Below, piece after piece: positions 20,546 through 55,991 of a stretch of 64,000 nucleotides of DNA. The stretch's first letter is position 1. Each line of letters opens with the position of its first letter. This stretch comes from Octopus vulgaris (lineage: Eukaryota), in NCBI GenBank assembly GCA_951406725.2, contig OX597836.1, positions 3,162,001-3,226,000 on the forward strand, given 5' to 3'. Made by a program: the position numbers and the translations under genes. Below the pieces are notes generated by a model. It saw nothing but the letters and a program-made list of their open reading frames with translations, did not search any database and had not been told where the DNA came from.

Positions 20546-21430
20546 CCTTTTTCAGACTCTTCCCCTGTTGGTTTGGCGAAGGAGTCGGGCTGGGCTGTCC
20601 GAGGACAGGACTTGCACAAGCCATTGGGGCGTTTTATAAGTGATGGGTCGCTCAGTTCCCCTCACCACCCCGCTATTAACAGAGATTTAAAAATAATATT
20701 GACAGACATATTATTGTTGTTCTTCTTCTTGTCCTTGTTCTACTTCCTTTTCTTTGTATTCCTTCCATGTTATTGATCCGTATTGTTGCGAATTGTCGTT
20801 TAAGTAGTTCTTGGAATCCTCATTACCGAATTCCACTATGCAAAACTAACTATCAACTATAAAAATGAAATACCGGCGATGAAGGTTGTACCAGTTCCTT
20901 TGATCAGCACTTTCACAAAAGTACTGATGGTTGGTAAAGTTTTTTATCTTTATTATAGTAAAAACCAACAGAAGAAAATAATAATATTGTCCTTCCGCCA
21001 AGTCAGACATGATTAAGAGTGACAGCACAGAAGGGAGGTAATTGAACATAAAGTCAAACGAAACCGAGAAATCAAGGTCTCAATATTTCCATAATTTCTC
21101 CAATAATACTACTCAAATTATTTATTGAATCATTGTTTTTTTGTTGTTGGTTTTTGTAGAAGTATTGAGTTACTTTCCCTTCTATCAAAACACGATACGA
21201 GCATAATATATTTCTGTATGTATTATGGATAATGTTTAGGGAAAAAAAATTAAAGAAATGTTAAGATATTGACCGCAGTGAGAGGTCTGTCCTTGAGCCC
21301 AATCATAAACCTCCCCAGCTGTCACTCCTAATCAAGTAAGACTTGTCATACAATTTTGTTTTTATTTTTTACCTATAAAGATAGTAGAGGAAATTATGTG
21401 AGTGTGTACATGTGTGTGTATATCTATCTA

Positions 21431-21467
<37 letters not shown>

Positions 21468-21511
21468 ATATATATACACTTTATTTAAAGCAGCAGAAAA
21501 TTCAACAAAAT

Positions 21512-21549
21512 CTGTTACTCTGAGTTTCTCGTTACCGTTCATCAGACAG
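21512..21549 (-). ncRNA. Minimal type-I hammerhead motif on the opposite arm
   Basis: The minus strand reads CTGT-CTGATGA-ACGGTAACGA-GAAA-CTCAGAG-TA-ACAG. Confidence 0.7.
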
Positions 21550-21576
21550 TTTTTATCGGTTCCATTCTAGCAAAAA

Positions 21577-21614
21577 CTGTCTGATGAACGGCAACGAGAA
21601 ACTCAGAGTAACAG
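21577..21614 (+). ncRNA. Minimal type-I hammerhead ribozyme motif
   Basis: CTGT-CTGATGA-ACG(GCAA)CGA-GAAA-CTC(A)GAG-TA-ACAG. The core is intact, stem II has a GNRA loop with an A.A mismatch at its base, the triplet is GUA (predicted cut after 21610), and stem I is CTGT/ACAG. Confidence 0.75.
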
Positions 21615-21749
21615 ATTTTGTTGAATTTTCTGCTGCTTTAAATAAAGCATATTACTCTACCACTGGTATTTGAGTACTCCTTTTCCCACCTTGTTTCACA
21701 TTTATGTATTTACTCCGGTATATATATATATGTATATATGTCATCATCA

Positions 21750-25051: not shown

Positions 25052-26992
<1,941 letters not shown>

Positions 26993-48543: not shown

Positions 48544-49020
48544 AAGGCGGCGACAGGGCAGACACGTGAGCACGCCGGGCGAAATGCTTAGCGCTATTTC
48601 GTCTGCCGCTACGTTCTGAGTTCAAATTCCGCCAAGGTCGATCTTGCCTTTCATCCTTTCGGGGTCGTTAATTTAAGTACCAGTAAAACACTGGGGTCGA
48701 TATAATCGACTTAATCCACTTGTCTGTCCTTGTTTATCCCCTCTGTGTTTGGCCCCTTGTGGGTAATAAAGAAATAGGTATTTCATCTGCCGCTACGTTC
48801 TGAGTTCAAATTCCGCCGAGGTCGATCTTGCCTTTCATCCTTTCGAGGTCGTTAATTTAAGTACCAATTACGCACTGGGGTCGATATAATCGACTTAATT
48901 CGTTTGTCTGTCCTTGTTTGTCCCCTCTGTATTTAGCCCCTTGTGGGTAATAAAGAAATAGGTATTTCATCTGCCGCTACGTTCTGAGTTCAAATTCCGC
49001 CGAAGTCGACTTTGCCTTTC
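48544..49020 (+). mobile_element. SINE family B concatemer (184-bp period)
   Basis: GCTACGTTCTGAGTTCAAATTCCGCC occurs at 48608, 48792 and 48976, with a single head AAGGCGGCG. Confidence 0.93.
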
Positions 49021-51789: not shown

Positions 51790-52715
51790 CTGGAATCTTG
51801 CGGGAGGAGATTTAGGGACACCATCGCCCCCAGTATTTAACTGGTATTATATCTTATCGACACCGAAAGGATGGAACCAAGGATGTATTCGGCGGGATTT
51901 CAACTCGGGATGCAAAAGCACGCAAAAAATATCGCAAGGCATTTTTCCAACGATGTAACATGTCTATCCACGACCCTCACCGTCTAAACAAAACCTTTCT
52001 ACTGCAAGCACAAGACCTCAAATTTGAGAGAAGAGATTAAGTATATTACAGCGACCCCAGTGCGTAACTGATACCTAATTTATCGACCCCAAAAGGATAA
52101 AAGGTAAAGTCGACCCCGACGGCATTTGAACTCAGAACACGAAGACAGACCAAATATCGCTAAGCATTTCGCACGGCGCGATAACGATTCTTTTCTACTT
52201 TATGCACAAGGTCCGAGATTTTTGGATAGGAGCCAGTCGATTACATCAAACCTCAGTACACAACTGGTACTTAATTTATCGACCCCGAAAGAATGAAAGA
52301 CAAAGTCGACCTCGGTGGAATTTGAACCCGGAACGAAGGAATATTCTTTTCTACACTAGGCACGAGGCCAGAAATTTTGGGGGTGGAGGTTCATCAATTA
52401 GATCGACTCCAGTACGCAACCGGTACTTAATTCATCGATCCCGAAAGGACGAAATGCAATGTCGACCTCGGTGAAATTTGAACTCAGAATGAAGGGATAT
52501 TCTTTCCTACTCTAGGCACAAGGCCTCAGATTTGAGGGAAGGGATTAAGTCGATTACATCGACTCCAGAGCGTACTTAATTTCTCTGGTACTTAATTTCT
52601 CGACCCCCAAAGCATAAAAGGCAAAGTCGATTCCGGCATCATTTGAACTCAGAACCCGAAATACTGCTAAACTTTTCAGCCGGCGTGTTTAATGTTTCTG
52701 CCATCTCTCCGCCCT
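51790..52715 (-). mobile_element. Cluster of SINE family B units including a 156-bp-period trimer
   Basis: GCAC(A/G)AGG unit ends at 52204, 52360 and 52516; AAAGTCGACC...AATTTGAAC recurs. Confidence 0.88.
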
Positions 52716-55775: not shown

Positions 55776-55779
<4 letters not shown>

Positions 55780-55990
55780 GGAGTAAACACATAAATGTGA
55801 AACAAGGTGGAAAAAAGAGTACTCAAATACCAGTGGTAGAGTAATATGCTTTATTTTAGAGAAAAAATCAAAATCGTTACTCTGAGTTTCTTTGCCGTTC
55901 ATCAGACAGTTTTTGCTACAAAAACTGTCTGATGAACACGAGAAACTCAGAGTAACAGATTTTGTTGATTTTTCTGCTGCTTAAAATAAA

Positions 55991-55991
<1 letters not shown>
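55776..55991 (-). mobile_element. Foldback hammerhead element, copy 2
   Basis: Reverse-complement homologue of 21479-21720. TCATCAG is at 55899-55905 and CTGATGA..GAAACTCAGAGTAACAG at 55929-55958. (TA)n flanks both sides. Stem II carries small deletions in both arms. Confidence 0.85.

Follow-up and report, generated by a model that had tools for sequence, protein, structure and literature searches.

The foldback at positions 21479-21718 of the window (the whole stretch of 64,000 nucleotides of Octopus vulgaris DNA analysed here) is formed by two hammerhead-bearing stubs of the terminal repeat of a Penelope-like element (PLE) carrying the motifs of the Hydra clade, set head to head within a (TA)n microsatellite, and probably (at a rough probability of 0.75) arose from two target-primed cDNAs that stopped near the 5' end of the element's RNA and annealed. 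Within this explanation, the parentage of the arms, the two fixed outer ends, the variable joints, the continuum of lengths and the pile-up of arms at one point are read directly from the copies. The foldback itself is likely a by-product of insertion rather than a mobile unit or a ribozyme switch.

The unit is flanked by its (TA)n target, recognised from the sequence and the microsatellite list at 21419-21478 on the left and from the sequence at 21719-21739 on the right. The arms of the inverted repeat, 21479-21554 and 21572-21647, are each 76 bp long and differ only at 21534, a position in the stem II loop (GTAA versus GCAA, GNRA either way); the near-perfect inverted repeat of the preliminary description, with an outward-pointing hammerhead core on each strand, was recovered as reported. 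Read outward, each arm runs CTGT-CTGATGA-ACGG(C/T)AACGA-GAAA-CTCAGAG-TA-ACAG. In the left arm, the minimal type I hammerhead motif occupies 21512-21549 on the reverse strand (core match 21524-21545), with the predicted cut after GUA between 21516 and 21515. That of the right arm lies at 21577-21614 on the forward strand, with the predicted cut after 21610, and comprises stem I (21577-21580 with 21611-21614), the core (21581-21587), stem II (21588-21597, with an A.A, 2 bp and a GCAA loop), GAAA (21598-21601) and stem III (21601-21609, with a 1-nt loop). The cut after 21610, as well as an AATAAA at 21641-21646, agrees with the earlier prediction.

The left arm (21479-21554, reverse strand) has no tail; it is a stub of the terminal repeat of the parent in inverted orientation and reaches just past AATAAAG, to the short start site; on the forward strand the same signal occupies 21641-21647, the short end site following G21647. 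Beyond it, the tail (21648-21718) fills the interval between the two start sites, and in full-length copies the 5' leader and the open reading frame (ORF) come next. This tail had been described as 73 bp long; it is indeed present and measures 71 bp, reaching 73 only if TA is counted. The tail-bearing arm (21554-21718, forward strand), a terminal-repeat stub plus tail, is 96% identical to the parent copy L062 over 170 columns. Matches to the parent run forward over 21554-21722 and inverted over 21479-21554, the two arms meeting at 21554 in one T common to both, and the 17-nt 'spacer' between the arms is further parent sequence that belongs to the tail arm. The latter also contains, at 21564 on the forward strand, the A of the motif ATTCTAG. 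An extended stem I begins with this A, which is also the point at which arms pile up genome-wide and the putative +1 of the parent RNA; the tail arm of the window extends 10 nt beyond it.

The hammerhead core pattern has four matches in the 64-kb window, against 0.14 expected by chance. Two of them belong to the foldback described above and the other two to a second, more decayed copy of the structure (55778-55991, reverse strand), which sits 34 kb from the first and shows a different joint and stem II deletions on both arms. The fold predicted for the whole unit has an energy of -129.3 kcal/mol (z -22), and an Rfam search returned sub-threshold miRNA hairpin matches only and no hammerhead family. 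The surrounding DNA is very rich in microsatellites (131 rows), including a (TA)n run of ~1.9 kb at 25052-26992. Tandem units of 184 and 156 bp at 48595-49020 and 52235-52568, both with GTCGA-rich motifs, resemble copies of one dispersed, possibly SINE-like repeat.

The origin of the arms was traced through the sequence lying just inside the tail arm, which occurs 631 times, often in pairs 40 bp to 3.5 kb apart. At locus L062, two direct repeats 3495 bp apart surround an ORF of 711 amino acids; the 5' repeat carries the tail and continues into the leader, the 3' repeat ends after AATAAAG, and both arms of the window are 96-99% identical to this terminal repeat. The ORF contains RWK at 37, DKT at 113 (and no DKG) and YRDD at 344, followed by CxCx5C at 562, CxxC at 667 and CxH at 686, which are present in 106, 112 and 112 of 112 aligned rows, respectively. 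CxxC and CxH stand beside conserved E and N, as is characteristic of the Hydra clade. A VVY...YTG motif at 581-600 (89/112 rows) makes this C-terminal region a GIY-YIG endonuclease candidate by motif only. Searches of Pfam and of PDB sequences with the 711-aa ORF gave no matches, and Pfam searches with three of 120 homologues gave a single GIY-YIG match, in P0002, at a position unmapped relative to the 711-aa ORF. A structural model of the ORF reached a pLDDT of 93, and its best match among solved structures was telomerase reverse transcriptase (TERT; E 7e-10). ORFs of 711-727 amino acids are also found in copies L209, L210 and L217. The hammerhead in the terminal repeat and the (TA)n target are both present in the parent; at 3495 bp from repeat to repeat it exceeds the 'generally under 3 kb' given for the clade, a tendency in the source paper rather than a strict limit. 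As judged from these motifs, every Hydra motif tested being present, the parent is a Hydra-clade PLE.

Homologues of the 711-aa ORF numbered 1014 among 7991 scored candidates. The more than 1000 full-length homologues (P0001-P0120 among them), at 41-57% identity, come from public assemblies and are nearly all unnamed; described families number a couple of dozen, and the Hydra clade seems to be much larger than this.

Thirty-four loci (19 + 15), chosen for their paired matches, were aligned to the parent. Most of them show two inverted arms of 0.1 to ~4 kb with the tail on one side, and insertions with this two-arm layout range in size from less than 200 bp to that of full-length copies; L062 itself carries its repeats in direct orientation, without inverted arms. 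At the large end of the series, L209 (G000:C1:64214300-64222400) is an 8-kb insertion with the 711-aa ORF and with arms at or beyond full length, the tail arm being a partial tandem of ~4 kb and the tail-less arm measuring 3.5 kb. Other layouts were also seen: in L147 (G000:C1:11813900-11815400) an inverted tail-only stub is joined to a piece spanning the tail to the first 280 nt of the ORF, with an end that falls at neither usual site, and L066 is an inverted, internally rearranged insertion of three parent pieces whose order and orientation change. The idea that the structure is a MITE or foldback DNA transposon that happens to hold the motif, an outcome which the preliminary description itself had named as refuting its proposal if already catalogued, is hardly credible. 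Small size, abundance, inverted arms and a TA target would suit such an element, but on one side the tail extends beyond the inverted repeat, which is not terminal there, the arms are the repeat of an element encoding a reverse transcriptase, and the centre is variable; the coding parent and the length continuum refute this reading. For the same reason of descent, the proposal of a separate mobile family fails: the arms derive from the terminal repeat of the coding parent.

In the octopus genome itself (2.8 Gb, 227 contigs), nearly all of the 40 candidates scored, out of 2118, cover the unit end to end. The 30 whole copies compared share the same two outer ends, set in TA repeats; on the left side a TA repeat, or nearly so, flanks 29 of them, the exception being L014, where a second tail is found. 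In L014 (1495-1800), where each arm bears a tail, the foldback is fully symmetric; neither arm of L064 has one. Apart from these two exceptions, the copies have the structure of an insertion by an endonuclease-bearing (EN+) PLE, namely an inverted 5'-truncated copy with a one-sided tail. Exact tail matches number 5884 genome-wide, and foldbacks counted by the nucleotides between anchors amount to 181 (0-30), 868 (31-90) and 1593 (91-150), 716 of which, of the window's subfamily, turn just upstream of the core. Ends of inverted arms at the short start site were called at 64 in 56 rows and at 65-71 in a further 10, of 71, the call of 64 being the same short-site end lengthened by an ATAT common to the TA repeat. 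The recurrence with fixed ends that the preliminary description proposed to test for is seen in the thousands of copies and their outer ends; the joint, in turn, varies. The distance between cores lies at 21 to 50 nt in the 22 copies, of 31, in which both cores are exact, and many centres are palindromes that turn at different points, with no conservation of the centre.

These observations bear on the notion of a non-autonomous element of 240 bp, transcribed and moved as a unit and choosing between a hairpin and a cleaving ribozyme, which was the central proposal of the preliminary description and which we regard as very unlikely. It would be in keeping with the two fixed outer ends of the best whole copies, with the greater number of short forms and with the frequent recurrence of a few joints. 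However, the joint changes from one copy to the next, and the arms grade in length into full-length coding elements; the two fixed ends correspond to known starting points of reverse transcription in the parent rather than to the ends of a new element; and the upstream CCAAT region is absent from the stubs. A self-propagating unit would inherit its joint together with a fixed orientation of the tail, but the joint GCTAG|ATTC (in a mixed locus sample) has the tail on the right in 11 copies and on the left in 6, and another recurring joint has it on the right in 4, on the left in 1 and on both sides in 1. The variable joint, the tail on either side and the fact that either arm may be the longer one thus indicate that each copy likely arises de novo, from a pair of cDNAs that are primed at the two start sites of the element.

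The predicted RNA folds argue in the same direction. The motif was recognised as the minimal, dimer-type hammerhead of a Penelope-like pLTR lying in an inverted partial copy, an assignment that holds, both arms matching a PLE terminal repeat. The conserved core, stem I and the short, near-palindromic stem III of a minimal type I hammerhead are all present. Stem II opens with an A.A in place of the usual G10.1-C11.1 (purine-pyrimidine) pair, leaving two Watson-Crick pairs closed by a GNRA loop; position 11.1 is A in 52 of the sampled arms, T in 15, G in 13 and C in 2. Genome-wide there are at least three ribozyme subfamilies (U4 or C4, U7 or C7, and A/G/T/C at 11.1), and among the 11.1 variants only the T form restores the first stem II pair, which suggests weak selection on that pair. 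An intermolecular stem III duplex between two arms is predicted at -7.4 kcal/mol, and a single arm alone favours a misfold, with a probability of 2e-5 for the active-like monomer, a figure that counts against a unit element even before the foldback is considered. In the foldback transcript, the antisense arm is transcribed first in either direction, and the core is predicted to be unpaired with a probability of at most 0.001; moreover, the two arms, being on opposite strands, form no dimer with each other within one RNA. With the core predicted to be fully paired and the arms unable to dimerise, the proposed switch between hairpin and cleaving form is unlikely in foldback copies. The hammerhead on each strand is predicted to be a passenger locked in the hairpin, and such copies, if read through, would yield long double-stranded RNA at most.

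The ends of the arms were examined in the first 100 of the 5884 tail matches (99 loci on one contig, within its first 55 Mb), each having an exact 22-nt tail and both arms being mapped on a natural copy; 71 rows have a clean inverted arm, and the other 29 (none called, outside the stretch, or doubtful) were counted by the tail arm alone. Measured from the end of the tail, 83 of the 100 tail-anchored rows extend 158 nt at most, and 17 go beyond 158. Of the 50 rows that attain 149 nt, 29 stop at 149-153 and 4 at 154-158, and the following 41 nt account for 3 more. The arms pile up at the A of ATTCTAG, which lies 153 nt from this end. In line with this, nested patterns at 147, 152 and 157 nt match 5263, 3367 and 1946 arms genome-wide, part of the drop being plain mutation over the 10 added letters. 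Fifteen short rows lack a called inverted arm; the stop falls at 130-153 in 10 of these and at 154-298 in none. ATTCTAG is also the stopping point in copies linked directly to (TA)n (12 rows). The sequence at the stop, CCATTCT, is initiator-like, and a CCAAT box stands at -71 to -75.

The base preceding the stop was recorded for 66 arms at 70 loci, 40 of which had been chosen for G, A or subfamily-A T rows from a further list of 100. G precedes 25 of 52 arms that stop exactly at ATTC, only 4 of the 52 being clearly untemplated, and it precedes 9/13 arms at the ATTCTAG stop versus 24/82 at other stops (p 0.01). An excess of G is what a copied cap would give, and most of it is also explained by the sequence of the partner arm. 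Taken as a whole, the distribution of ends suggests that the A of ATTCTAG is likely the 5' end of the parent RNA and the stubs strong-stop-like cDNAs. The same A also opens extended stem I, and a cDNA hairpin at this stem could be the cause of the stop. Arms running past 158 nt, the tail arm of the window included, imply that other templates exist. No pile-up of arm ends was found at the ribozyme cut site (106 nt), with 2/100 rows at 100-109 nt, which is in line with uncut RNA being the main template, as reported for another PLE in the parts consulted of PMC11167929. The notion that arms end at the ribozyme cut was not borne out by the same 2/100 rows nearby, and ends near ACAG, judged by eye, fit microhomology.

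The lengths of the arms bear on whether one or two cDNAs make a foldback. Across the 71 foldbacks the tail arm is shorter than the inverted arm in 39, longer in 23 and equal in 9. In 7 of the 71 (L147 set aside) the tail arm does not span the full length of the tail and the arms share no sequence, so neither can have been the template of the other. These lengths are the main obstacle for a reading with the same parent and the same by-product in which a single cDNA primes itself, the pile-up arising from stem I of the cDNA or the CTAG palindrome rather than from the RNA 5' end: snap-back of a tail-primed cDNA gives neither a shorter tail arm (39/71) nor non-overlapping arms (7/71), and palindrome-free copies joined straight to (TA)n stop at ATTCTAG too (12 rows). 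Self-priming, as proposed by Arkhipova et al. (2013; PMC3846280, in the part consulted), nonetheless draws on perfect palindromes at many joints, on stem I starting exactly at the stop base and on joints through the stem's ATTC in L232, L270, L272, L273 and L276. It would also account for the two arms of a copy having nearly always the same subfamily alleles: across 205 comparisons of diagnostic positions, from 49 foldbacks, the arms carry the same allele in 197, where 93 disagreements would be expected at random. Copying of one arm from the other explains this agreement just as well; under two cDNAs the agreement demands a single RNA, a single source locus or a single subfamily active at a time. 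All things considered, we hold self-priming to be unlikely and favour two cDNAs.

These findings allow us to propose how such copies could form. The element's protein would cut both strands of (TA)n, one target end priming at the end of the tail and the other just after AATAAAG; these start sites would lie ~150 and 85 nt from the RNA start, in the 5' terminal repeat. With start sites so near the RNA 5' end, most cDNAs would run off at or before ATTCTAG. The two cDNA 3' ends would then be joined through microhomology of 0-6 nt, in many cases the self-complementary CTAG, followed by fill-in. Long copies would require read-through, a template jump, or an RNA in tandem or circular form. The mechanism with two start sites was demonstrated in another clade, Poseidon, and is applied here by analogy. 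In vitro work on Poseidon_Ac (Frangieh et al., 2024; PMC11167929), in the parts consulted, describes the cutting and extension of both strands of an AT-rich target, reverse transcription from two internal sites whose interval becomes the tail, uncut RNA as the main template, and a protein-assisted hammerhead dispensable for insertion. Two cDNAs, each primed at one end of a cut target, are what this work would lead one to expect. The joining steps are left open in those parts, which describe neither head-to-head cDNA joining nor a genomic 5' pile-up.

Several features of the octopus family are known from other systems, as far as the consulted parts of the sources cited here go. Hydra-clade PLEs such as Hydra-1_Amil and Hydra-1_Obim (Craig et al., 2021; PMC8557442), which have a single ORF of ~700 aa with RWK, DKT, CxCx5C, CxxC and CxH, resemble it in ORF motifs, terminal-repeat hammerhead and (TA)n target, and the same paper describes PLE copies with an inverted 5'-truncated copy and a one-sided tail. 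Compared by eye in its supplement, the end of Hydra-1_Amil has a hammerhead core and stems I and III nearly the same as those of the octopus family, whereas Hydra-1_Obim, with another hammerhead row and protein, seems to be a different family. The octopus family differs from those described in its unit of 3.5 kb (versus less than 3 kb) and its tail of ~70 nt (versus 30-40), and in that most copies are stubs of less than 160 nt per arm. The inverted pLTRs of Adineta vaga (PMC3846280) are likewise head to head, with palindromic joints and an optional tail; they were explained by self-priming on an antisense template, whereas the octopus arm lengths favour two cDNAs. The minimal PLE hammerheads of Cervera and de la Pena (2014; PMC4209133) share with the octopus motif the type I core, the short stem I, the tiny near-palindromic stem III and the dimer-type fold, the octopus motif differing in its 2-bp stem II and in the A.A where G10.1-C11.1 is usual. 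These four shared features are also found in animal non-LTR retrozymes (bioRxiv 10.64898/2026.07.22.740005); those are defined, however, by tandem direct hammerhead repeats and by having no coding parent of the same sequence, while the octopus arms are inverted and their coding parent was found.

The inverted copy, the tail and the hammerhead are hence already published, and a 5' pile-up at one point was not found in print. The literature searched held no 5' pile-up or head-to-head strong-stop cDNAs; older Penelope reviews and the supplements of PMC11167929 lay outside the search and may show the pile-up. The octopus repeat paper PMC13282606, in the part consulted, has no occurrence of hammerhead, Hydra or palindrome.

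As a locus, the foldback is an ordinary insertion scar; as a set, its copies are a modestly useful mechanistic record, in which hundreds of joints, a sharp stop and both start sites can be read to the base. They bear on a question left open by Craig et al. (2021) and Frangieh et al. (2024), namely how PLEs form inverted and tandem structures, and they are a warning that a stub of this kind may be wrongly identified as a MITE, an miRNA hairpin or a two-way ribozyme switch. The thousands of stubs likely record where copying of the element RNA starts and stops. More tentatively, and with somewhat less than even confidence, we suggest that PLEs in general may prime two cDNAs, one per end of the cut target, at distances of ~150 and 85 nt from the capped RNA 5' end, that the commonest product would be the head-to-head strong-stop pair, and that full-length copies would depend on a jump to the 3' repeat, in the manner of retroviruses, or on a circular or tandem RNA made by the ribozyme. 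If this is true, the pseudo-LTR, the tail and the hammerhead would serve one shared purpose, and the thousands of stubs would constitute a nucleotide-level fossil record of the strong-stop step.
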